In this document: in pieces, positions 1 through 63,036 of the stretch
Numbering within the stretch: the stretch's first letter is position 1
How the letters are laid out: the number at the start of each line of letters is the position of its first letter
Source of the DNA: a virus
Taxonomy: Duplodnaviria; Caudoviricetes
Reading direction: 5' to 3' (one strand)
DNA length: 64,000 nt
IMG/VR virus record: IMGVR_UViG_2574179762_000001
Location: 43,762 to 107,761 of that record
The notes under the pieces: generated by a model
What the model saw: only the letters and a program-made list of their open reading frames with translations
Told to the model about the DNA's origin: nothing
Databases searched by the model: none
Position numbers and translations under genes: made by a program

Positions 1-1012
1 TCCCGCAGGAGCTGCTGGCGCCACGGGCCTTCCCCTGCGCGCTTGAATACACGAACCTTGAACGACATGAAAAGCTCGCCCTCCTCTACCTTCCAGGCGA
101 CGCTCAGTTCCGCGGCTTTCGCCTTGATCCCCTCGATGCTGTTCCACCACTCGGCGGCGGTCTGCGTCGGCGTAGCTGGGTCAGCCGGCTTGCCGGCCAC
201 AGCCGCCGCGGCTTTGGCGGCCTGCTCGCGCGCCGAGCGAATAATCCCCAGGATGTAGCCGGCGTTCGGCCTCTCGTTGGGCTTCTTCATGCCGAACACC
301 TCGACCGCTTCTGCGATCTCCTGGTCAGACACGGCCAGGCGGACCATCTCGGTGACGTCGGCGTGATTGCTGGTCACCGCCATGCCGTAGGTCTTGCGGA
401 GCAGGATGGCCAACTGCACGGGCCGCGGGTTTTCCTCGCCGGTCGTCTGGTTCAGCGGGTGTGATGTGGCGTGGGCTGCTGCCCCCGCGTTGCCGCTGAG
501 GTTCACATCACCACTAACCTTTGAAGTAGTAGGTGATGGTGATGGTGAAGGGCATTGCTCAGGCACAGCTCCGGGCAGTCCATCGGGCAGTCCATCGGGC
601 ACTGCTTCGGGTTGTGCTTCGAGCATGCTTGGAGCATCGCTTGCGGCATGCCCGGGGGACTTCCTGCCCCACCTCTTTTCTGCTGCTAGTGTGGCTTTTG
701 CTACGGCACTTTCTTTCCGCGTCTGGCTTGCCCGAAGCTCTTCATCGGCGCGCTTCTGGTGCAGCAATCCGTTCTCTTCCTTGAAGAATCGGATCACAGC
801 AGGCTTCGCCCTCTTCCATGCGGCAGCCGTAAGGCGCGTGATCTGCGCGCCAGCGTCGCGTCGTCGTGGGGCGGCGGCCCATTGCGCCAGTAGTCCATGA
901 GCAGCAGCAGGTATGCCCCATGCTGCTCAGTGGTCAGGCGCGTGGTGTCCGCCAGGTAGTCGCCGATGAACAGCGGCATCCAGACGTCCGCCTTGTCTTT
1001 GGCCTTGCTCAC
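1..1012 (-). pseudogene. DUF1376/YdaU-family phage replication protein, frameshifted near 845-850
   Basis: N-terminus [32 protein letters not shown]. Removing 2 nt from GCGCGC restores [38 protein letters not shown], and that frame appears to run off the window start. Confidence 0.8.
551..653. repeat. ~12-bp periodic iteron-like repeats (GGCAGTCCATCG / GGCACTGCTTCG) in the rep gene; putative origin
   Basis: About 9 imperfect copies inside the initiator gene, as with lambda O iterons. Confidence 0.6.
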
Positions 1013-1431
1013 TTCGATACCTCCAGGGGCGGCAGGTACGCCGCCAGCAAGGTTTGCGTCTCACGGGTCAACTCGGCCTCATCAAAGCCATACACGGCAG
1101 CAAAGCGCTTCACGCCCAGACCGTGCACGCCGGTGTTGCCGCGGTGGTGCTCCGGGCAAAGCGGGATGGCGTCTCGGTGCTCGGCGCGCTGGCCCATGCC
1201 GGTACCCTTGCGCGGGTGATGGATCTCCGCCGGCGTGGCGCCCAGGCCCAGCCGACGGCAGCAGGCGCAGCCGAGCGCGGCGACGTGATCAAGGTAGATG
1301 CGCTCCGCCTTCTTCGCGCGCGTCTTCCCCTTCTTCTTGAAGGGGCTGGGAACCAAGCCTGCGGTCTGTCTCAGCCAAATAGTTGAATGCAGTGGCGTTC
1401 TTCGACGAAGTTGGGTGCGACGCTTTAGCAT
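1009..1431 (-). CDS. Ref/DUF968-family HNH-like nuclease
   Basis: GCACC...EIHH...[14 protein letters not shown] motifs. Confidence 0.8.
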
Positions 1432-1550
1432 GACGCAACCCAATCCGTCGTCGACAGATTTTGCGCGGGCTTTACCCCCACCGAAGTACGATTGAAAGTG
1501 GAAGCCTTGTATGCCAGCATCGCTAGCTCAACAATTTCGAGAGGACAACA

Positions 1551-2865: not shown

Positions 2866-3114
2866 TTACTTCCCGTTGCTGCACCTTTTGCTCTTGCAGC
2901 AGTATTCGCGCACGAAGGCCCAATCGACTTTGTCGTTGAGTTCTTCACAGGCGACGGCACCTTCGGTGAGCCGCTCGATTACTGGGCACTGCTCGGCCGA
3001 CACCGGCCGCTTGCCAGAGATCCACTGGTAGACGAGTCCTTGGGAGACCCCAAGTCGCTTTGCGAAGGCGGCCTGGCTGGTCTTCGTGGTTTCGAGATAT
3101 TCGGCGAGCTTCAT
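2866..3114 (-). CDS. cro: Cro/YdaS-family regulator
   Basis: SQAAFAKRLGVSQGLVYQWISGKRPV; divergent from cI. Confidence 0.85.
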   Translation of the reverse strand: MKLAEYLETTKTSQAAFAKRLGVSQGLVYQWISGKRPVSAEQCPVIERLTEGAVACEELNDKVDWAFVREYCCKSKRCSNGK

Positions 3115-3121
3115 GAACCAA

Positions 3122-3189
3122 ATACTAGCATAGCTAGTTAAATCGTCAATAGCTATGCTTGTTGTGCAAACAAATAGCATTGCTACACT
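3122..3189. promoter_or_regulatory. OR region: three TAGC-N3-GCTA operators with divergent PR and PRM promoters
   Basis: Operators at 3126-3136, 3150-3160 (one mismatch) and 3175-3185; TTGACG-16-TAGTAT on the minus strand; TACACT at 3184-3189. Confidence 0.75.
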
Positions 3190-3196
3190 CGCGCGC

Positions 3197-4201
3197 ATGT
3201 CGCGACCAAGCAAAACTCTCGAAGCCTGGCAAGCCGAAGACGCCGCGCGTCTGAAGGCGCTCTATGGCGAGCGCAAGGGCAAGATGAGCCAGGAGGAATT
3301 CGGCAGCCGGTTCGAAATCGGCAGCCAGGGCATGGTCTGGCAGTATCTGAACGCCCGCCGTCCTCTGAATATCAAGGCGGCCACCGGCTTTGCGCGTGGC
3401 CTAGGTGTCGAAGTCGATGCGTTCAGCCTGCGGCTGGCTGAGGAGATCCGCAGGGCCTCTAGTACCGTCACCGACACGGTTCCGACCGTCCCTTCTGGCG
3501 CCGAGGCTGGCGGGAAGCCATCGGATCGATTGCGCATCGTCATGGCGGAGCAGCATCTCGACATTCCCGGGGTGGCGCAGCTCTTGGGCGTTGAATCGGC
3601 CGTCGTGCGTTCATGGCTTGAGCAGGATGCGCCAAAACTGCATCTGCACCACGCAGTCAAGCTGCAAGAGGCCTATGGCTACAGCCCTGCGTGGCTGATC
3701 AATGGCAAAGGGGAAGCGCGGCTATCGAACCTCCAGGAGGCCGAGCTGGACGAGCCCAGCCTGCCCGAGGACACATTCCCAATTCCACAGAGTGTTTTCA
3801 AACGGATTCCGGTTAGGGGCATGGCGCAGTTGGGAGACAACGGACACTTTGTCGATATTGAATATCCAGTCGGGCACGGGGATGGATACCTCTATTTCCC
3901 CACTGCCGACCCTGATGCGTACGGATTGCGCTGCAATGGTGAGTCCATGCGACCGCGGGTCAAGCACGGAGAGTTTGTAGTTGTCGAACCCAATCGCGCC
4001 GTAACCAATGGCGACGAGGTCCTGGTAAAGGCCCAAGACGGCCGTGTCATGGTGAAGGAACTGGCCTACGTCCGCGACGGCGTCGTGCACCTGTCGTCCG
4101 TGAACGAGCGCCACGGCATGCTGCGGATTCCTCAGGAACAGATCGTCCGCCTGCAGTACGTAGCCGGCATCGTGAAGTCCTCGGTCTGGCGGCCGGATTG
4201 A
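3197..4201 (+). CDS. cI: CI repressor: two HTH domains plus S24 autoprotease
   Basis: HTH SQEEFGSRFEIGSQGMVWQYLN; second HTH VAQLLGVESAVVRSWLE...PAWLING; S24 motifs GESMRP and MVKEL. Confidence 0.9.
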   Translation: MSRPSKTLEAWQAEDAARLKALYGERKGKMSQEEFGSRFEIGSQGMVWQYLNARRPLNIKAATGFARGLGVEVDAFSLRLAEEIRRASSTVTDTVPTVPSGAEAGGKPSDRLRIVMAEQHLDIPGVAQLLGVESAVVRSWLEQDAPKLHLHHAVKLQEAYGYSPAWLINGKGEARLSNLQEAELDEPSLPEDTFPIPQSVFKRIPVRGMAQLGDNGHFVDIEYPVGHGDGYLYFPTADPDAYGLRCNGESMRPRVKHGEFVVVEPNRAVTNGDEVLVKAQDGRVMVKELAYVRDGVVHLSSVNERHGMLRIPQEQIVRLQYVAGIVKSSVWRPD

Positions 4202-4276: not shown

Positions 4277-4897
4277 ATGGAAAGTCCAATAACTTCGTCT
4301 GAACCCGGTATTAGGAAGGCCCTTTCCCACCTCGACTCCATGCTGGTCCCGAACGAGGTCGCGAAATGCTACGCCGTGCAGCGCCGACTCTTCGCACTTC
4401 TCCATCGCCGGGTCATGGTGGCGGCGACCTCGGGGAGGCTGATCGGCATCAGCCGGGGCTTGATCGGCGGATTCACGCCAGTGGACATCCGCTGGCAAGA
4501 CGTCAAAACGGCAAACGTCAAAGCGGGAATCTTTGGCAGCGACATTACGATCACCGCCCTCACCCAGCCTGACTTAGCGAGCGGCGGGACCGTACGCACG
4601 TTCCAATTTACCGGGCTCAGGAAGGCCGACGCGCAGGCGGTATATCGTGCCTGCCAGGCGCAGGAACAAGCATGGCGCGAAAAGCGGCGGCTTCGCGAGT
4701 TGGAAGAGTTGCGAGCCAAGTCGGGCGGCTTCCAGGCATCATCGCCGCGCGACGTGTCGTTCGGGAACGACGAATCCAACTCTGGCAAGGGAGATCTCAC
4801 TTCGCGCCTCAAGCGCGCAAAAGAGATGCTCGATAGCGGTCTGATCAGCGATTCCGAGTACGAGACGATTAAAGCGAAAGTTATCTCGGAAATTTAG
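4277..4897 (+). CDS. Bacterial PH-domain protein with C-terminal SHOCT domain
   Basis: ATSGRLIGISRGLIGGFTPVDIRWQDV (PH-like); LKRAKEMLDSGLISDSEYETIKAKVI (SHOCT). Confidence 0.75.
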   Translation: MESPITSSEPGIRKALSHLDSMLVPNEVAKCYAVQRRLFALLHRRVMVAATSGRLIGISRGLIGGFTPVDIRWQDVKTANVKAGIFGSDITITALTQPDLASGGTVRTFQFTGLRKADAQAVYRACQAQEQAWREKRRLRELEELRAKSGGFQASSPRDVSFGNDESNSGKGDLTSRLKRAKEMLDSGLISDSEYETIKAKVISEI

Positions 4898-4992: not shown

Positions 4993-5289
4993 ATGAACGA
5001 TTCAGCCAAAGAGATGATGCTGTATGACGCCCAAAAGAAGAGCGTCGGCGTCGCCTATGCACTGTGGTTCTTCTTGGGCATGTTTGGGGCCCACCGCTTC
5101 TATGCGGGGTCCAACGCGATTGGCTTCGGCCAAATGGCGCTCAGCATCCTTGGCTTCCTCGTCCCATGGGGCGTCGGCCTCTTCATTTTCGGTGCGGTCA
5201 GCATATGGGTGCTGATTGATGGGGTACTTCTTCCAGGTGTGATTCGAGACTACAACGTGCGACTGGCGAGTAGCCTGGGGAACGCTTGA
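4993..5289 (+). CDS. TM2-domain membrane protein
   Basis: KKSVGVAYALWFFLGMFGAHRFYAG. Confidence 0.85.
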   Translation: MNDSAKEMMLYDAQKKSVGVAYALWFFLGMFGAHRFYAGSNAIGFGQMALSILGFLVPWGVGLFIFGAVSIWVLIDGVLLPGVIRDYNVRLASSLGNA

Positions 5290-5422: not shown

Positions 5423-6328
5423 GTGACCCACGTATTCGGCGGTGAATGGACGGAACAAAAGCTCGTGGCCTTGAAGAAGTATCTGGAGGCCTATCGGAAG
5501 ATTTTCACGATCAATGAAAAAGCCCGGTACTTCCGAACCGTCTATATTGATGCGTTTGCCGGTACCGGCGAGCGCAGCGACAAAGCGCCGGCTTCCGAGA
5601 AGCCAACCCTCTTTGACAACACCGACATAGATGCACCACAGGCCACCGGCCTGCACAAAGGAAGCGCTCGCATTGCACTCGAGCTTGAGTCACCGTTCGA
5701 TCAATACGTCTTCATCGACAAGAATCCCAAGCATACTGCTGGCTTGACGGAAATGATCGAGCATGATTTTCCGAACCTTAGGTCACGGTGCCGCATTCTC
5801 ACAGGCGATGGCGTGGAGATTGTCCGCGAGCAATTGATATATGGACATGACTGGAAGAGAACTCGGGCTGTGTTGTTCATCGACCCCTACGGAATGAACA
5901 TCCACTGGGATCTGATCCAGCGCATCGCTGCCACGCAAGCAATCGATATGTGGCTCCTTTTCCCGCTTGGCCAAGGTATGAATCGGCTACTTAGTCGCGA
6001 TCATCTTCCGAATCCAGGTCATAGCGCGAAGCTCACTGCAGTGCTCGGCACTGACGAATGGAAGACGCGGTTCTACAGTAGCCAAACACAGACGGATCTC
6101 TTTGGCATCGAGTCGGAGAGCAGCTTGAAAACTGCCACATTCGAAAATATGGTGGAGTTCCTAAAAGAACGCCTTTCGAGTGTGTTTGCTGGCGTTGCAT
6201 CCGACGTCATGATGTTGGAGAACTCGAAGGGTAGCCCACTGTATGCCCTTTGCTTTGCAGCCGCGAACAAGGCTGGTGCTAAGACCGCCATTAGAATCGC
6301 TTCCGATCTCCTCCGAACGCGTCTATAG
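5423..6328 (+). CDS. tcmP: Three-Cys-motif partner protein (TcmP-like), SAM methyltransferase fold
   Basis: FGGEWTEQKL..L..YL, YIDAFAGTG, GSARIAL, FIDPYG; adjacent to DUF5131. Confidence 0.85.
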   Translation: MTHVFGGEWTEQKLVALKKYLEAYRKIFTINEKARYFRTVYIDAFAGTGERSDKAPASEKPTLFDNTDIDAPQATGLHKGSARIALELESPFDQYVFIDKNPKHTAGLTEMIEHDFPNLRSRCRILTGDGVEIVREQLIYGHDWKRTRAVLFIDPYGMNIHWDLIQRIAATQAIDMWLLFPLGQGMNRLLSRDHLPNPGHSAKLTAVLGTDEWKTRFYSSQTQTDLFGIESESSLKTATFENMVEFLKERLSSVFAGVASDVMMLENSKGSPLYALCFAAANKAGAKTAIRIASDLLRTRL

Positions 6329-6349
6329 TACTGTACGTTTAAACAGTAC
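6328..6349. promoter_or_regulatory. LexA (SOS) box between tcmP and DUF5131
   Basis: GTACTGTACGTTTAAACAGTAC matches taCTGT-N8-ACAGta; possible TTCCGA-17-TATAGT promoter at 6301-6329. Confidence 0.75.
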
Positions 6350-6357
6350 CTCATACC

Positions 6358-7098
6358 ATGGCCACTACCACCACGATCGAATGGACTGATATGACGTGGA
6401 ACCCGGTCACGGGCTGCATCAAGATCAGTCAAGGCTGCAAGCACTGCTATGCCGAACGGATGGCAAAGCGCCTTCATGCAATGGGTAGCGCGCGATACGA
6501 GAATGGCTTCGCCCCTACACTGCATCACGATCTCATTGATACTCCCCGCCGCTGGAAGAAGCCGCGTGTTGTCTTTGTCAATTCGATGAGCGACCTGTTT
6601 CAGGAAGACGTGCCTCTCGATTTCATCCAAGCCGTCTTCAAGACCATGGTCGAATGCCCACAGCATACCTTTCAGGTCCTGACTAAGCGTGCAGACCGAC
6701 TGGCGCAGGTCGCTGATCAGCTGCCTTGGCCTGCGAACGTGTGGATGGGCGTAAGTGTCGAAGATGATCGGGTAGTGCATCGGATCAAGGACCTTGCGTC
6801 CACGCCTGCCCAAGTCAAATTCCTCTCTTGTGAACCACTGATCGGACCTCTTGAAAAGCTGCCTCTCGCTGGGATCGACTGGGTCATTGTCGGCGGAGAG
6901 TCAGGGAAAGGCGCTCGCCCAATGGAAGAAGCGTGGGTTCAATCGATCCGCCGCCAATGTCGAGCTGCTCGTGTCGCCTTCTTCTTCAAGCAGTGGGGAG
7001 GTGTCCGGAAAGACCGAACGGGTCGCGAGTTGAACGGCAGAACATATGACGAGATGCCAAGAAAGCGCGGATCGTCACTGACCCAGCTAGCCGCGTAG
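6358..7098 (+). CDS. DUF5131 (phage Gp37/Gp68) three-Cys, radical-SAM-like protein
   Basis: [61 protein letters not shown]. Confidence 0.92.
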
Positions 7099-7100
7099 TC

Positions 7101-7171
7101 AAAGCCCGCCACCCGGCGGGCTTTTTGTCGCCCGCACCACACACCTGAGCCGCCCTTGTGGCGGCTTTTTT
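7101..7171 (+). terminator. Two tandem intrinsic terminators closing the cI-cargo region
   Basis: AAAGCCCGCC-ACCC-GGCGGGCTTTTT and GAGCCGCC-CTTGT-GGCGGCTTTTTT. Confidence 0.8.
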
Positions 7172-16342: not shown

Positions 16343-16392
16343 TTGGGGTGGCTGATGGGACTCGAACCCACGACGACAGGAATCACAATCCT
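16343..16392. repeat. att core: 50-bp duplicate of the tRNA-His 3' part
   Basis: Identical to 62959-63008 (TTGGGGTGGCTGATGGGACTCGAACCCACGACGACAGGAATCACAATCCT). Confidence 0.97.
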
Positions 16393-16498: not shown

Positions 16499-16529
16499 TT
16501 GACCCAGATACTGTATATCCGTACAGTAT
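16499..16529 (+). promoter_or_regulatory. SOS promoter: TTGACC-17-TACAGT overlapped by a LexA box
   Basis: taCTGTATATCCGTACAGta at 16509-16528. Confidence 0.85.
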
Positions 16530-16535
16530 CCAGCC

Positions 16536-16943
16536 ATGCCAAGATTACAGCCGATGCCGCGACCGCCCGCCCCGCCGGACGGCTACGACCCCTGCCCCAT
16601 CGACCCTAACTACGACCGCTACTACATCCTGGATGAGGCCGGCCAGCCGGTGCGCGTCTATGACTACGGCGTGCACGCCCGCTGGGAGTCCTTCGAAGGC
16701 AAAGCCTTCCAGATCAGGGACATGCTCACCGACTATGGCGTGGAGGTCTGGACCTACTTCTCGGGCTGGGGCAGCTTGCGGGATGACGAGCCGCCCGTCT
16801 TCCGGACTACGGTCAGGGGGCCGCTGCTCGACAAGACATTTCGCTCGCTCACCTGGGAAGAAGCCGAAGACAAGCACCGCCGGGTGATCGAGAAGGTCCG
16901 CCGCACGATGTCGCGGAAGCCCGGCGTGTCGGACGGCGCCTGA
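16536..16943 (+). CDS. LexA-controlled hypothetical phage protein (candidate antirepressor)
   Basis: YYILD...PPVFRT.V...TWEEAE..H pattern; ATG 8 nt after the -10. Confidence 0.7.
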   Translation: MPRLQPMPRPPAPPDGYDPCPIDPNYDRYYILDEAGQPVRVYDYGVHARWESFEGKAFQIRDMLTDYGVEVWTYFSGWGSLRDDEPPVFRTTVRGPLLDKTFRSLTWEEAEDKHRRVIEKVRRTMSRKPGVSDGA

Positions 16944-16998
16944 TAGCGACGGCCAAGCGGCGCGCGGAGACTGGCGGCATAACCATCAGGAGACTGCC

Positions 16999-17220
16999 AT
17001 GCCAGGACAAGACATCCACGTAGTACCCGCCGATGGCCGCTGGGCCGTTGAGACCGAGGGCGGCCACGGCCGAGAGACGTTCGACACCCAAGCAGAGGCC
17101 ATCGCCGCCGGCACCGAGAGGGCCAAGGCGAAAAAGGTCGAGCTGTTCATCCATGGCTTGGACGGCCAGATTCGAGAGCGCAACACGTTCGGCAACGACC
17201 CGCGCGACGTGAAGGGTTGA
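16999..17220 (+). CDS. DUF2188-family protein
   Basis: IHVVP..GRWAV...FDTQAEAI...LFIHGLDGQIRERNTFGNDP. Confidence 0.85.
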   Translation: MPGQDIHVVPADGRWAVETEGGHGRETFDTQAEAIAAGTERAKAKKVELFIHGLDGQIRERNTFGNDPRDVKG

Positions 17221-17224
17221 CGCC

Positions 17225-17863
17225 ATGCCTGGGCGGCGCGAGGCCCCGCCCCTGAACTTGGCCAGCTTCCCGCTGATGCTGGCCAAGCGCGGCGTGATGC
17301 CGCACGGTGACGACTGGCTCTACGAACTGAAATACGACGGGTATCGCCTGCTGGCGCGGACGGGCGACCCGGCGGTACGCCTGCGTGAAGGTGGCGACGC
17401 TACCAGCTGGTTCCCTGAACTGCACATCCCCTTGGCGGCCCTGCCCGCGGGCTGCGTGCTCGACGCCGAGGGCGTGGTGTTCGATGACATCGGCCGCCCC
17501 GACTTCAACGCCTTCCATGCGCGGGCCCTGCGCAGGCGCTGGTATCGCGGCGCGCCCCCTGTCGCCCTCGCCGCCTTCGACCTCCTGGTCCTGCGCGGGC
17601 GGGACATCCGAGACTGGCCCATAGAGAAACGCAAAGCGGCGCTGCAGAAGCTGCTAGGCGGGGTGACCGTTGGCCTGCTGTACGTGAGCGCCGTGGACGA
17701 TGGTGAATGGCTCTACCAGCATGTGCGGGCCCTCGGCATGGAGGGCATCGTCGCCAAGCGCGCCGGCAGCCTGTACCGGGGCGGCGCATCCGACGACTGG
17801 CGCAAGATCAAGGTGCCTGGCTACCACCGCCTAGGCAAGTTCCAGCGTGAACCTCTCGCTTGA
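17225..17863 (+). CDS. ATP-dependent DNA ligase, adenylation domain only
   Basis: ELKYDGYR, LDAEGV, AFDLL, RK..L, EGIVAKR..S.Y, W.KIK; no OB domain. Confidence 0.88.
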   Translation: MPGRREAPPLNLASFPLMLAKRGVMPHGDDWLYELKYDGYRLLARTGDPAVRLREGGDATSWFPELHIPLAALPAGCVLDAEGVVFDDIGRPDFNAFHARALRRRWYRGAPPVALAAFDLLVLRGRDIRDWPIEKRKAALQKLLGGVTVGLLYVSAVDDGEWLYQHVRALGMEGIVAKRAGSLYRGGASDDWRKIKVPGYHRLGKFQREPLA

Positions 17864-55770: not shown

Positions 55771-57549
55771 ATGATTCGCGACCAGTTCCTGCTCGACATT
55801 GCACCTGAGCTCATCATCGACAACTTCGCCGGCGGCGGTGGTGCCAGCTGCGGCATTGAGTTGGCCCTCGGCCGCCACGTCGACATCGCGGTCAACCACG
55901 ACCCTGAGGCCGTGGCGATGCACGCCATGAACCACCCCCAAACCGAGCACCACTGCGAAAGCGTGTGGGATGTGGACCCGCTCGACCTGGTGAAGGGGCG
56001 GCCGGTCGGCCTCGCCTGGTTCAGCCCGGACTGCAAGCATTTCAGCAAGGCCAAAGGCGGCAAGCCGCGCGACAAGAAGATCCGGGGCCTCGCCTGGGTG
56101 GCAATGCGCTGGGCGGCGCTGGTACGGCCGCGCGTCATCATCCTAGAGAACGTGGAAGAGTTCCAGACGTGGGGCCCGGTGCTGGCCGACGGGAACCCGT
56201 GCCCGAAGCGCAAGGGCGACACCTTCCGCTCTTTCGTGCGCCAGCTGCATGAGAAGGGCTACGCCGTCGAATGGCGCGAACTGCGCGCCTGCGACTATGG
56301 CGCGCCGACAATCAGGAAACGCCTGTTCTTGATCGCCCGTTGCGATGGCAAACCCATCGTCTGGCCGGAGCCGACGCACGGTGCACCGGACAGCGCCGCG
56401 GTGAAGGCGAGGCAGCGCAAGCCGTGGCGCACGGCCGCCGAGTGCATCGACTGGTCGATCCCTTGCCCGTCGATCTTCGAGCGCGCCCGCCCGCTGGCTG
56501 AGGCCACGGAGCGCCGGATCGCGCGCGGCCTGCGCCGGTATGTCATCGGTGCCGCCGATCCGTATGTTGTGAAGCTGCCTGCCAGCGCCGCGGCGCCGAT
56601 CTTGACCGAGTGCGCCAACGCGTCCGGCCAGCGCAGCTTCCGCGCCGACGAGCCGCTGCGCACGCAGTGCGCCGAGGTCAAGGGCGGGCACTTCGCGCTG
56701 GCGTCCGCGACTCTGGTGCAGACCGGCTATGGCGAACGTCCCGGCCAAGCGCCGCGCGCGCCGGGGCTGGACAAGCCGCTGGGCACGGCCGTCGCCGGCG
56801 GCGTTAAGCATGCGCTGGTTTCAGCCTTCCTCGCCAAGCACTACGGCGGCAACGAGACGCCCGGCGCAGACCTACGCGACCCGACCAGCACCATCACCGC
56901 CAAGGATCATCACGCTCTGGTGACGGCCCAGCTCGTGGGCTGCGGAGGCCGCGCCGGCCAGAGCAGGCCGCGCGACGCGGGCGAGCCGATGCAGACGATC
57001 ACTGCCAAGGGTGACACCGCCATCGCCACGTCGCACTTGGTGAAGCTGCGCGGCGAGTGCACCGGCAGCTCGACCGACGCGCCGGCAACGACTGTGACCG
57101 CCGGTGGTACGCACATCGGCGAGGTTCGCGCCTTCCTGGTGAAGTACTACAGCGAGGGCGGCCAGGATCAGGACTGCCGCGACCCGATGCACACCATCCC
57201 GACCAAGGACCGACTCGGCCTGGTGACCGTGGCAGGCGAGCAGTACCAGATCGCCGACATCGGCATGCGCATGCTGGTCCCGCCTGAGCTGTACCGGGCC
57301 CAAGGCTTCCCCAGCACATACATCTTTGCCCCAACCATCGACCCAGCCGATCCGCTGCTGGCGTTCGTACGCGAAGCCCTGATGCGCATCGGGAAGATGA
57401 AGGCTTACCGCCTGCCGCAGCACGCTCAGGTCCGTATGTGTGGCAACAGTGTCAGCCCGCCGATGGCTGCCGCACTGGTTCGTGCCAACGTGCCTGAGAT
57501 GGCCAGCTGGACGGCGAAGGAATCGAAGGCGATCAAGGAGGCAGCGTGA
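55771..57549 (+). CDS. dcm: DNA (cytosine-5) methyltransferase
   Basis: FAGGGG (I), SPDC (IV), ENV (VI), R.R (VIII), GNSV (X); repeated P..TIT/H..LV TRD units. Confidence 0.93.
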   Translation: MIRDQFLLDIAPELIIDNFAGGGGASCGIELALGRHVDIAVNHDPEAVAMHAMNHPQTEHHCESVWDVDPLDLVKGRPVGLAWFSPDCKHFSKAKGGKPRDKKIRGLAWVAMRWAALVRPRVIILENVEEFQTWGPVLADGNPCPKRKGDTFRSFVRQLHEKGYAVEWRELRACDYGAPTIRKRLFLIARCDGKPIVWPEPTHGAPDSAAVKARQRKPWRTAAECIDWSIPCPSIFERARPLAEATERRIARGLRRYVIGAADPYVVKLPASAAAPILTECANASGQRSFRADEPLRTQCAEVKGGHFALASATLVQTGYGERPGQAPRAPGLDKPLGTAVAGGVKHALVSAFLAKHYGGNETPGADLRDPTSTITAKDHHALVTAQLVGCGGRAGQSRPRDAGEPMQTITAKGDTAIATSHLVKLRGECTGSSTDAPATTVTAGGTHIGEVRAFLVKYYSEGGQDQDCRDPMHTIPTKDRLGLVTVAGEQYQIADIGMRMLVPPELYRAQGFPSTYIFAPTIDPADPLLAFVREALMRIGKMKAYRLPQHAQVRMCGNSVSPPMAAALVRANVPEMASWTAKESKAIKEAA

Positions 57550-58574
57550 GCGAGAACAGCAAGATCGAGTGGACTGACCACACCTTCAACCCGTGGGAGG
57601 GGTGCCAGAAGGTCGGCCCCGGCTGCGACCACTGCTACGCGGAGACGCGCAATGCGCGCTTCGGTGGAGGCGTGGCCGTGAACTGGGGCCCGGGCGCGCC
57701 GCGCCGGCGCACCTCGCCGGCCAACTGGCGCAAGCCGCTGGCGTGGAACGCGAACCATGACGCCTTCTTCGGCGAGCACGGCCGGCGGCAGCGCGTCTTC
57801 TGCGCCAGCCTGGCTGACGTGTTCGACAACGCCGTCGATCCGGCGTGGCGTGCCGACCTATTCCATCTCATCGAGCAAACGCCGAATCTGGACTGGCTGC
57901 TGCTGACCAAGCGGATCGGGAATGCCGATCGCATGATCAGGGAGGCGCGCATTTCCCTAGTCGGCTCGACTCGGCTGGTTGTGCCGGAGGTGCTTCCAAA
58001 TGTCTGGCTGGGCGCGACGATCGTCAATCAGGCTGAGGCCGACCGCGACATCCCGAAGCTGCTGGCTGTGCCGGCACACGTTCGGTTCCTATCGATGGAG
58101 CCGCTGCTGGGGCCGGTAGACCTGGGCGTGATCGACATCGATGGGCATTCGGAAATCTACCCACTCAAGGGCACCGCCGGCTGCGAGGACGTCGAAGGCA
58201 ATGCAGCCCCTGATTTGCCTGCAATCGACTGGGTGATTGTCGGCGGCGAAAGCGGACCCGGCGCGCGGCCTATGAGCCCAGACTGGGCGCGTTCCCTGCG
58301 CGACCAGTGCCGGCGGGCCGGCGTGCCGTTTTTGCTCAAGCAGTGGGGCGAGTTTGTCCCCTACGAGCACGATGCCCAGCCGCCCTTCCTGACTTCGCAG
58401 CATGGCGACTTCTTCGATGGACATGGACTGCCGGACTTCGAAAGCGGCGAGAGCTGCGGTGACTGGCACCGAGACGAAACCTGCAGGCTGCTCGCGCGTC
58501 GCGTTGGCAAGAAGGCCGCCGGCCGCCTGCTCGACGGCGTGCAGCACGACGGATTCCCGGGAGAAGCAGCATGA
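57546..58574 (+). CDS. DUF5131 (Gp37/Gp68) three-Cys protein, translationally coupled to dcm
   Basis: [51 protein letters not shown]. Confidence 0.92.
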   Translation: MSENSKIEWTDHTFNPWEGCQKVGPGCDHCYAETRNARFGGGVAVNWGPGAPRRRTSPANWRKPLAWNANHDAFFGEHGRRQRVFCASLADVFDNAVDPAWRADLFHLIEQTPNLDWLLLTKRIGNADRMIREARISLVGSTRLVVPEVLPNVWLGATIVNQAEADRDIPKLLAVPAHVRFLSMEPLLGPVDLGVIDIDGHSEIYPLKGTAGCEDVEGNAAPDLPAIDWVIVGGESGPGARPMSPDWARSLRDQCRRAGVPFLLKQWGEFVPYEHDAQPPFLTSQHGDFFDGHGLPDFESGESCGDWHRDETCRLLARRVGKKAAGRLLDGVQHDGFPGEAA

Positions 58575-62872: not shown

Positions 62873-62959
62873 CAAGAATCAAGTTCCAAAATTTGGAAGA
62901 TCATCTTCCAAAAATCTTCCTAAGTCAGTGACCCTTAACCTTGGAACCTAATAAATACT

Positions 62960-63036
62960 TGGGGTGGCTGATGGGACTCGAACCCACGACGACAGGAATC
63001 ACAATCCTGGACTCTACCAACTGAGCTACAGCCACC
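62960..63036 (-). tRNA. tRNA-His (GUG)
   Basis: GGTGGCTGTAGCTCAGTTGGTAGAGTCCAGGATTGTGATTCCTGTCGTCGTGGGTTCGAGTCCCATCAGCCACCCCA; has G-1 and CCA. Confidence 0.97.

Follow-up and report, generated by a model that had tools for sequence, protein, structure and literature searches.

A Predicted LexA Operator Lies between the Genes of a TcmP-DUF5131 Pair in a Prophage Immunity Region

The stretch of DNA analyzed here (the window, 64,000 nt) corresponds to G000:C8:3144459-3208458 in a host genome of 9.74 Mb with a GC content of about 65%. It carries a prophage in which two adjacent genes, tcmP and a member of the DUF5131 family, close a plus-strand block that opens with a gene for a cI-like repressor (Table 1). 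The original prediction, which was drawn from the window's sequence, described an intact two-gene cassette of lower GC content downstream of cI; both open reading frames (ORFs), the cI-like repressor upstream, and the composition (52 to 56.5% GC versus about 65% for the genome) were verified. The tcmP stop codon occupies positions 6326 to 6328, and a same-strand gap of 29 nt (6329 to 6357) separates it from the ATG of the DUF5131 gene. Most of this gap is filled by TACTGTACGTTTAAACAGTA, a match to the operator of the SOS repressor LexA. The two terminator-like hairpins at the end of the block differ in how they were found, as the second (7149 to 7162, with its T-run) was called by a terminator scan and the first (about 7104 to 7126) was read by eye.

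Table 1. Positions of the features discussed (window coordinates unless marked C8)
Feature	Position	Strand	Basis
cI-like repressor, helix-turn-helix (HTH) and Peptidase_S24	3155..4201	+	Pfam PF00717, 1.9e-14; weak HTH_31 match
bPH/SHOCT-domain protein, cargo gene between cI and the pair	4277..4897	+	Pfam SHOCT, 5e-07; bPH_3, 3e-05
TM2-domain small membrane protein, cargo gene	4993..5289	+	Pfam TM2, 4.4e-14
tcmP, GTG start, 301 aa	5423..6328	+	TIGR04474, 3e-54; PDC-M41A match
Putative -10 hexamer TATAGT	6324..6329	+	Inferred by reading the sequence; overlaps tcmP stop codon, abuts LexA box
LexA (SOS) box TACTGTACGTTTAAACAGTA	6329..6348	none	Extended-motif match inside the tcmP-DUF5131 gap
DUF5131 gene, ATG start, 246 aa	6358..7098	+	PF07505, 3.6e-102; PDC-M41B match
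Two terminator-like hairpins with T-runs, end of block	7104..7170	+	Second called by scan, first by eye
C5 cytosine DNA methyltransferase, 592 aa, neighboring prophage	55771..57549	+	PF00145, 3.6e-24
Second DUF5131 gene, 342 aa, CX6CX2C	57546..58574	+	PF07505, 2.4e-91; search of the window's own genome
tRNA-His attachment (att) repeats	C8:3095069-3095125; C8:3105299-3105347; window 16343-16391; window 62959-63006

The putative operator matches the extended motif TACTGT-N8-ACAGTA at 12 of 12 arm positions and sits within a 22-nt palindrome that spans positions 6328 to 6349. In the whole genome, the extended motif has nine exact sites, while its reversed control has none. One of the nine precedes recA (C8:896096; RecA was verified by Pfam), and sites of the form ACTGT-N8-ACAGT precede lexA (C8:3089885; the LexA DNA-binding domain was verified by Pfam) and an imuA-like ORF that was recognized only by eye from its translation. 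Host recA and lexA, therefore, carry the same operator type as the pair, and a canonical LexA protein is encoded. The bare core CTGT-N8-ACAG is not enriched in the genome (57 sites versus 68 for its control), and its two occurrences in the window, against 0.70 expected, are reached in 18 of 100 shuffles. Because the 4+4 core alone is not enriched, the case for a LexA box rests on the extended motif. A near-consensus box filling most of the gap, as originally predicted, is thus real, being one of nine sites in the genome against none for the control. The regulatory architecture is well supported by sequence, with LexA binding and induction as predictions from it. An SOS control of DUF5131 that is separate from that of tcmP, also part of the original prediction, is plausible, and the arrangement recurs elsewhere with an operator type that fits each phylum.

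The product of the second gene matches Pfam PF07505 (DUF5131) at 341.5 bits, with a gathering threshold of 28.9, over profile positions 2 to 243 of 243. It also matches the PADLOC profile PDC-M41B almost end to end (6.1e-124), as well as PDC-M30B. Its CX6CX2C motif (C20-X6-C27-X2-C30) was found as had been described, and the three cysteines are invariant in 71 DUF5131 sequences, as is GGESG (residues 179 to 183), which we take to resemble the GGE motif that binds S-adenosylmethionine (SAM). A structural model built from 71 sequences (predicted local distance difference test score [pLDDT], 90.6) has a radical-SAM fold with a partial TIM-barrel, and radical-SAM chemistry is predicted for the protein. 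The best match to this model was spore photoproduct lyase (SPL), with a Z score of 14.6 to 14.7 and a root mean square deviation (rmsd) of 2.8 Å over about 195 of 246 residues, followed by viperin (Z of about 12.1), RlmN, LipA, and LAM (11.7), and NifB (10.6). The earlier description of the protein as loosely like SPL was therefore apt, since SPL is its nearest structure (Z of 14.7). The structural alignment spans only residues 71 to 341 of SPL. At the sequence level, a DUF5131 profile searched against PDB sequences returned no SPL chain at E values up to 10, only chance-level matches, and there was no match to an SPL family in Pfam or NCBIfam. The account of RadicalSAM.org in PMC9477430 includes DUF5131 as radical-SAM subgroup Megacluster-5-2, with the CX6CX2C motif, and SPL as the adjacent subgroup 5-3.

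TcmP matches NCBIfam TIGR04474 (three-Cys-motif partner protein) at 184.6 bits, with a cut-off of 53, over profile positions 1 to 258 of 263, and matches PADLOC PDC-M41A almost end to end (7.3e-121). No Pfam family was found for it at E values up to 0.01, including the RlmJ family PF04378. Both motifs named in the original prediction are present, namely, VYIDAFAGTG (residues 40 to 49) and LFIDPYG (residues 151 to 157); they contain motif I (DAFAGTG) and a motif-IV-like stretch (LDPYG), in which G47, G49, and D154 are invariant. The model of TcmP, built from 72 sequences (pLDDT, 92.6), has a class-I SAM methyltransferase fold of the RlmJ/Trm1 type. The amino-methyltransferases RlmJ (Z of 16.2; rmsd of 3.2 Å; 203 residues) and Trm1 (Z of 14.8) are its nearest structures, in agreement with the methyltransferase fold that had been proposed, and generic class-I methyltransferases scored no higher than 13.3. 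In a profile search of PDB sequences, GSxxIA and (L/F)DPY of TcmP aligned with GSPLIA and DPPY of RlmJ, with RlmJ reaching an E value of only 0.07. RlmJ was also the nearest named cluster to TcmP in the ESM Atlas (0.84), which serves as a lead only.

A survey of DUF5131 loci, a check that the original prediction had suggested, was used to examine whether LexA operators recur in front of the gene. The survey set comprised 187 loci, the window's own included, and the 186 others were scored. A DNA search of 401 genomes from the same order gave 30 loci, the window's genome among them, of which 27 had a DUF5131 match; further loci came from a single protein query, which contributed 80 of more than 590 genome stretches and 80 of 288 viral stretches. 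Starts of DUF5131 genes were positioned by phmmer, and the 100 nt upstream were searched. An exact phylum-type LexA operator was present in 16 of the 186 loci, whereas eleven control motifs, with changed spacing or with swapped or reversed arms, gave two sites in total. The 16 consist of 2 loci with CTGT-N8-ACAG, 11 with GAAC-N4-GTTC, and 3 with GTTC-N7-GTTC. The density of these three motifs is 0.11 to 0.59 per kb upstream of DUF5131, compared with 0.014 to 0.035 per kb elsewhere in the loci. When one mismatch is allowed, GAAC-N4-GTTC is found in 23 of 186 loci (controls, 2 to 6) and CTGT-N8-ACAG in 9 (controls, 1 to 3).

The form of the operator also fits its genomic background. Loci of 34 to 39% GC have AGAAC-N4-GTTC followed by a TATAAT-like hexamer, and loci of 65 to 70% GC have (T)CGAAC-N4-GTTCGA. 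The match of operator to phylum is judged from GC content, operator form, and the loci in named genomes, as the viral contigs carry no taxonomy. A box is present in all four named Bacillota loci, as an exact site in L051 and L055 and as a one-mismatch site in L053 and L079. The three motif classes imply at least three separate origins of the box. The Gordonia phages Easley and Fairfaxidum have no GAAC-N4-GTTC box upstream of DUF5131; an inverted repeat, CGAAT-N12-ATTCG, takes the place of the actinobacterial LexA box there (L195, about 3850 to 3875; L197, about 3900 to 3925).

A narrow first TcmP hidden Markov model (HMM) undercounted partners (114 of 187 loci at an E value of 1e-3 and 107 at 1e-4), and with an iterated HMM the number of loci with a TcmP-like flanking ORF rose to 142 of 187. 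All 10 partners tested passed the TIGR04474 cut-off, and long forms of about 390 aa correspond to PDC-M30A. The order is tcmP and then DUF5131 in 90 loci, convergent in 26, DUF5131 and then tcmP in 20, divergent in 2, and otherwise in 4, and 45 have no TcmP-like ORF in the flank. Coupling is often tight, with a gap of at most 13 nt or an overlap of the genes in 49 of 74 tcmP-first loci. Among the 17 loci with an exact box (the window's included), the box is in the tcmP-DUF5131 gap in 10; the remainder are 3 DUF5131-first operons (L160, L169, and L189), 3 convergent loci, and 1 divergent locus. A box upstream of tcmP, which would bring the whole operon under control, was found in 4 of 78 tcmP-first loci, and among convergent and divergent loci in 1 of 23, which is the shared region of L006. 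From this placement it follows that LexA would gate DUF5131, alone or together with tcmP, and never tcmP alone in the sample.

Comparison of close relatives indicates where the module is joined. In L006, whose DUF5131 protein is a close relative (78% amino acid identity), the geometry TATAAT|ACTGT is as in the window, and nucleotide homology between the two loci starts at the -10 element. The DUF5131 protein of L035 is 87% identical to that of the window while its partner is only 23% identical, and L115 is similar. Because of this homology edge and this contrast in identity, the gap can be regarded as a module junction and the partner as the variable part. A constant DUF5131 with a swapped TcmP would fit a variable specificity subunit joined to a constant catalytic one. 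In L035 itself (Burkholderia sp. Leaf177, the nearest DUF5131 relative), the 48-nt gap at about 2950 to 3000 has no LexA box; it has a palindrome, CGTACCGC-N9-GCGGTACG, that retains a TACTG half-site; this may be what is left of a LexA operator, or it may serve as an operator for a different protein. Two proteobacterial loci, L016 and L022, share an identical palindrome, GAACGATCGTTC, at about 32 nt before tcmP; its arms are of the Gram-positive type, though these genomes share the beta-proteobacterial order of the window.

Partners other than TcmP are found as well. A search of the window's own genome revealed a second DUF5131 gene in the neighboring prophage (Table 1), the product of which is 35% identical to the first (BLASTP, 5e-42). 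Its start and the stop codon of the preceding C5 DNA methyltransferase gene overlap by 4 nt. No LexA box lies upstream of it, and the two CTGT-N8-ACAG sites of the window are both distant from it. Among 76 adjacent ORFs from the 45 TcmP-less loci, D12 (three), C5 (one), and Dam (one) methyltransferases were identified, and DnaB, RecG, and HNH proteins also adjoin DUF5131 there. In the flanks of TcmP pairs (L035 to L137), Peptidase_M78 of the ImmA/IrrE type was the commonest family, at 7 of the 150 ORFs scanned from 219 collected, followed by Radical_SAM (4) and by integrases, ResIII, and BRCT (3 each).

Phage records provide additional examples, with DUF5131 carried by 176 of 50,697. After the immunity repressor gene, Gordonia phages Easley and Fairfaxidum have a gene annotated as "methyltransferase" that is convergent on the DUF5131 gene; Easley also has a metalloprotease and HTH gene pair divergent from DUF5131. 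The DUF5131 gene of prophiT36-2a has a DNA methyltransferase gene two genes upstream. The record of phage phiE125 notes that gp37 is similar to Rv2734, and this note is the only link between Rv2734 and the DUF5131 family.

We propose, tentatively and at something short of even confidence, that the pair is a two-step SAM-dependent base-modification module, acting most likely on DNA, whose radical-SAM half is kept off until SOS or prophage induction. A two-step modification is favored because a partner of methyltransferase fold, its SAM motifs intact, is nearly obligatory, because real DNA methyltransferases can replace TcmP, because most pairs are tightly coupled, and because the catalytic half is conserved while the partner is variable. 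The pair occupies the slot downstream of cI in the immunity region, where phage lambda carries rexAB. In lysogens, TcmP would probably be cotranscribed with cI, and its role would be to write or select the base to be modified. DUF5131 would have a promoter of its own, whose -10 element shares sequence with the tcmP stop codon and lies under the LexA operator; because the operator covers this putative promoter, DUF5131 would be silent until DNA is damaged or the prophage is induced. The enzyme might then join or follow the methyltransferase in acting on their common substrate, elaborating the methylated base. The purpose could be the protection of replicating phage DNA, or the modification may be too costly during lysogeny. 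The mom gene of phage Mu, which is tightly gated, offers an analogy for a costly modification that is restricted to lytic development.

A broader form of this proposal, which we consider doubtful, would make DUF5131 the catalytic core of a radical-SAM pathway, as yet undescribed, to hypermodified DNA bases. An interchangeable methyltransferase (TcmP, or a C5 or N6 DNA methyltransferase) would write the methyl mark, and DUF5131 would turn it into a new base. In at least three phyla, temperate phages would have brought the DUF5131 step under local LexA control independently, such that the base is made only at induction.

Several observations weigh against a LexA-gated two-step modification of DNA. 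An exact box is present in only 17 of 187 loci, the window's included, and upstream of DUF5131 in none of 10 named beta- and gamma-proteobacterial loci, including the nearest Burkholderiaceae relatives, L035 and L036. Two LexA-like motifs of Bacteroidetes taken from PMC8565304 were not enriched over their controls: CTAA-N5-TTAG was found in 2 of 172 loci (controls, 0, 0, 2, and 0) and GGA-N5-TCC in 4 of 172 (controls, 4, 1, and 4). On a FastTree phylogeny of 179 DUF5131 proteins, from which 8 rows had been removed by a length or X filter, box presence requires 12 changes, compared with a shuffled mean of 16.35 and minimum of 13. As the loci are related and the box label is mildly clustered on the tree, the box counts are not independent events. 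Moreover, for 45 of 187 loci the flank retrieved, truncated in some cases, contained no TcmP-like ORF, and gp38 of phiE125, the upstream partner of gp37, is neither TcmP-like (hhalign probability, 0.03) nor C5-methyltransferase-like. At the window's own locus, the DUF5131 promoter with its -10 at 6324 to 6329 is putative: a promoter scan made no call at TATAGT because of the weak -35, and the DUF5131 ATG has no Shine-Dalgarno sequence before it. RNA could also be the substrate, because the nearest structures to TcmP are RNA methyltransferases. Finally, repair would be an equally good explanation for the SPL-like fold and for the SOS control published for SplB-like proteins.

SOS-induced repair is, in fact, the strongest rival, though one that we hold to be less probable than not by a clear measure. 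DUF5131 would then be an SPL-like lyase that reverses a lesion, and TcmP a base-flipping or lesion-recognition partner, serving both prophage and host DNA at induction. SPL is the top structural match to DUF5131, about 2.5 Z units above the next family, and the classification in PMC9477430 puts the two in one megacluster together with an MJ0683-like group. SplB-like radical-SAM proteins are SOS regulated in several phyla, as data in PMC8565304, PMC3765255, PMC7739468, and PMC9380542 indicate, and LexA operators of three motif classes precede DUF5131. BRCT-domain proteins (3 of 150 ORFs), RecG, DnaB, and HNH proteins are among the neighbors, a LexA box precedes a DNA ligase module in both prophages, and M. 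tuberculosis has a mitomycin-responsive cluster, Rv2734-Rv2735c-recX-recA, described in PMC5057432. However, SPL needs no methyltransferase partner, whereas that of DUF5131 is nearly obligatory, with conserved SAM motifs (G47, G49, and D154); the alternative partners are genuine DNA methyltransferases; the second DUF5131 copy has no LexA box; and the likeness to SPL leaves the first 70 or so SPL residues uncovered and does not extend to the profile search of PDB sequences. Anti-phage defense, or a toxin-like module, is in our view unlikely. Here, TcmP would mark or protect self DNA, with DUF5131 as a damaging effector, either restriction-like or viperin-like through modified nucleotides, that LexA would restrain until the cell comes under stress. 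Both proteins match PDC-M41 strongly, the long-partner form matches PDC-M30, and viperins are the second-best fold match (Z of about 12). The slot downstream of cI is one in which prophages often carry exclusion genes. HSDR_N, ResIII, Eco57I, nSTAND3, and T5orf172 proteins are found among the neighbors, and in S. meliloti the TcmP gene SMa2243 is two locus tags from the Hna defense gene SMa2245, which is covered in PMC12445080. Expression of the methyltransferase first, with the effector gated, resembles the order in restriction-modification systems, and a highly variable partner fits an arms race. Nevertheless, literature searches, in which only two survey papers named PDC-M30, found no experimental test of PDC-M41 or PDC-M30, and LexA is cleaved slowly and in response to more than phage attack. 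Many lytic and temperate actinophages carry DUF5131 among early, replication-region genes, which better fits a phage-side function, and in the boxed DUF5131-first operons (L160, L169, and L189) the would-be toxin precedes its protector.

The original prediction had put forward a write/erase relationship; in the form considered here, a methyl mark made by TcmP during lysogeny would be removed by DUF5131 upon SOS induction. The box does separate the genes in 10 loci, where tcmP may go with the repressor while DUF5131 waits for SOS. This idea now seems highly improbable, as a gap of at most 13 nt or an overlap is typical of tcmP-first loci (49 of 74), three loci with alpha-type boxes and four with a box upstream of tcmP share one operator for both genes, and the second DUF5131 gene overlaps a C5 methyltransferase gene, an arrangement in which coexpression of writer and eraser would be futile. 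Write/erase is disfavored because obligate coexpression better fits enzymes that act together or in sequence. A function of the palindrome unrelated to LexA, whether as a chance match, an RNA hairpin between the cistrons, or the operator of another protein, is likewise very unlikely. It would be consistent with the lack of enrichment of the 4+4 core in genome and window, with the absence of a box from the nearest relatives, L035 and L036, and with the different palindrome in the L035 gap. On the other side, the full 20-mer, one of nine sites in 9.7 Mb against a control count of zero, has the form seen at recA, and other LexA-class operators recur at the same place in other phyla. The hairpin was considered as a candidate and rejected: the palindrome folds at -9.3 kcal/mol (z of -0.54), no more stable than shuffles, 50 of 200 of which fold at least as well.

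Comparison with described systems places the pair between several of them. Both component HMMs of PDC-M41 match the adjacent, same-strand genes of the pair, and the LexA operator between the genes, the folds, and the alternative DNA methyltransferase partners seen here go beyond that listing. The closest folds to TcmP belong to RlmJ, the 23S rRNA m6A2030 methyltransferase (DUF519), and Trm1, the tRNA m2,2G26 methyltransferase. TcmP differs from these enzymes in identity (about 15%), in having DPYG in place of the DPPY of RlmJ, in lacking a PF04378 match, and in being phage-borne and beside a radical-SAM gene. SplB-like (COG1533) genes of SOS regulons resemble DUF5131 in that a LexA operator often lies upstream, according to the regulon data in PMC8565304, PMC3765255, PMC7739468, and PMC9380542. 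Unlike SPL, DUF5131 has CX6CX2C in place of the canonical CX3CX2C (the motif given in PMC9477430), is about 100 residues shorter, is found on mobile elements, and stands beside a methyltransferase-fold protein.

Two-step hypermodification of phage DNA is known in the form of a C5 methyltransferase followed by a TET/JBP-type oxidase. The logic of such systems and of Mu mom is alike to that proposed for the pair, in that a methyltransferase writes, a second enzyme elaborates, and the second step is restricted to lytic development. What differs is that the second enzyme here is a predicted radical-SAM protein, that the gate is LexA, and that the modified base is a prediction.

Some of these elements were known already, namely, the TcmP-DUF5131 pairing (from the NCBIfam name), the listing as a candidate defense system, the radical-SAM membership with CX6CX2C, and the existence of SOS-controlled SplB-like proteins. 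The recurrent, phylum-fitted LexA operator aimed at DUF5131, the predicted RlmJ/Trm1-like and SPL-like folds, partner exchange that extends to true DNA methyltransferases, and the position in immunity regions are new. Literature searches turned up no paper that addresses what the pair does or how it is regulated, although tables in LexA-regulon and PADLOC surveys may list the genes. The earlier statement that no defined function was known for the pair is in line with this result. Its description as undescribed needs qualification: PADLOC lists the pair as candidate PDC-M41 (7e-121 and 6e-124), and the part that stands is that the literature searches found no test of this candidate.

TcmP-DUF5131 is widespread, as a relative is encoded in more than 590 genome stretches and 288 viral stretches retrieved by one protein query. 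The recurrent DNA damage switch, the pairing of an SPL-like protein with a methyltransferase, and the conserved immunity-region position provide handles for experiments. Should the product be a new DNA base, a radical-SAM branch would be added to phage DNA hypermodification. Should it be repair, the theme of SOS-regulated SplB would extend to mobile elements, and a role in defense would make the pair an SOS-gated defense system.

The prophage that carries the pair was originally described as otherwise decaying, and its gene content contradicts this description. A repeat of 48 to 58 nt, matching the 3' part of tRNA-His (window 62960 to 63035, minus strand), occurs at four places (Table 1) and delimits a tandem array in which a remnant (about 10 kb) is accompanied by two prophages, one of about 55 kb with the pair and one of about 46.6 kb. 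The pair-bearing element extends from C8:3105347 to window position 16343. Its structural genes are full length and include those for the terminase large subunit (777 aa, 7e-191), portal, head protease, major head, tape measure (1266 aa), and tail proteins, and it also encodes Erf-like, exonuclease, and integrase genes. This lambda-like prophage is apparently intact.

On the cro side of the pair-bearing prophage, a gene for a RecA-dependent nuclease (Ref-like; PF16786, 1.5e-09) lies at window positions 1009 to 1443 on the minus strand. Also, both prophages start, immediately internal to the att repeat, with a perfect LexA box followed by a gene with an ATP-dependent DNA ligase domain (window 16509 to 17863 and G000:C8:3105532-3106515; PF01068, 1e-17 for 17225 to 17863). 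In the window's module, a 135-aa ORF without a family match (16536 to 16943) lies between box and ligase. The combination of LexA box and ligase at the prophage end looks like an SOS-gated ligase module.

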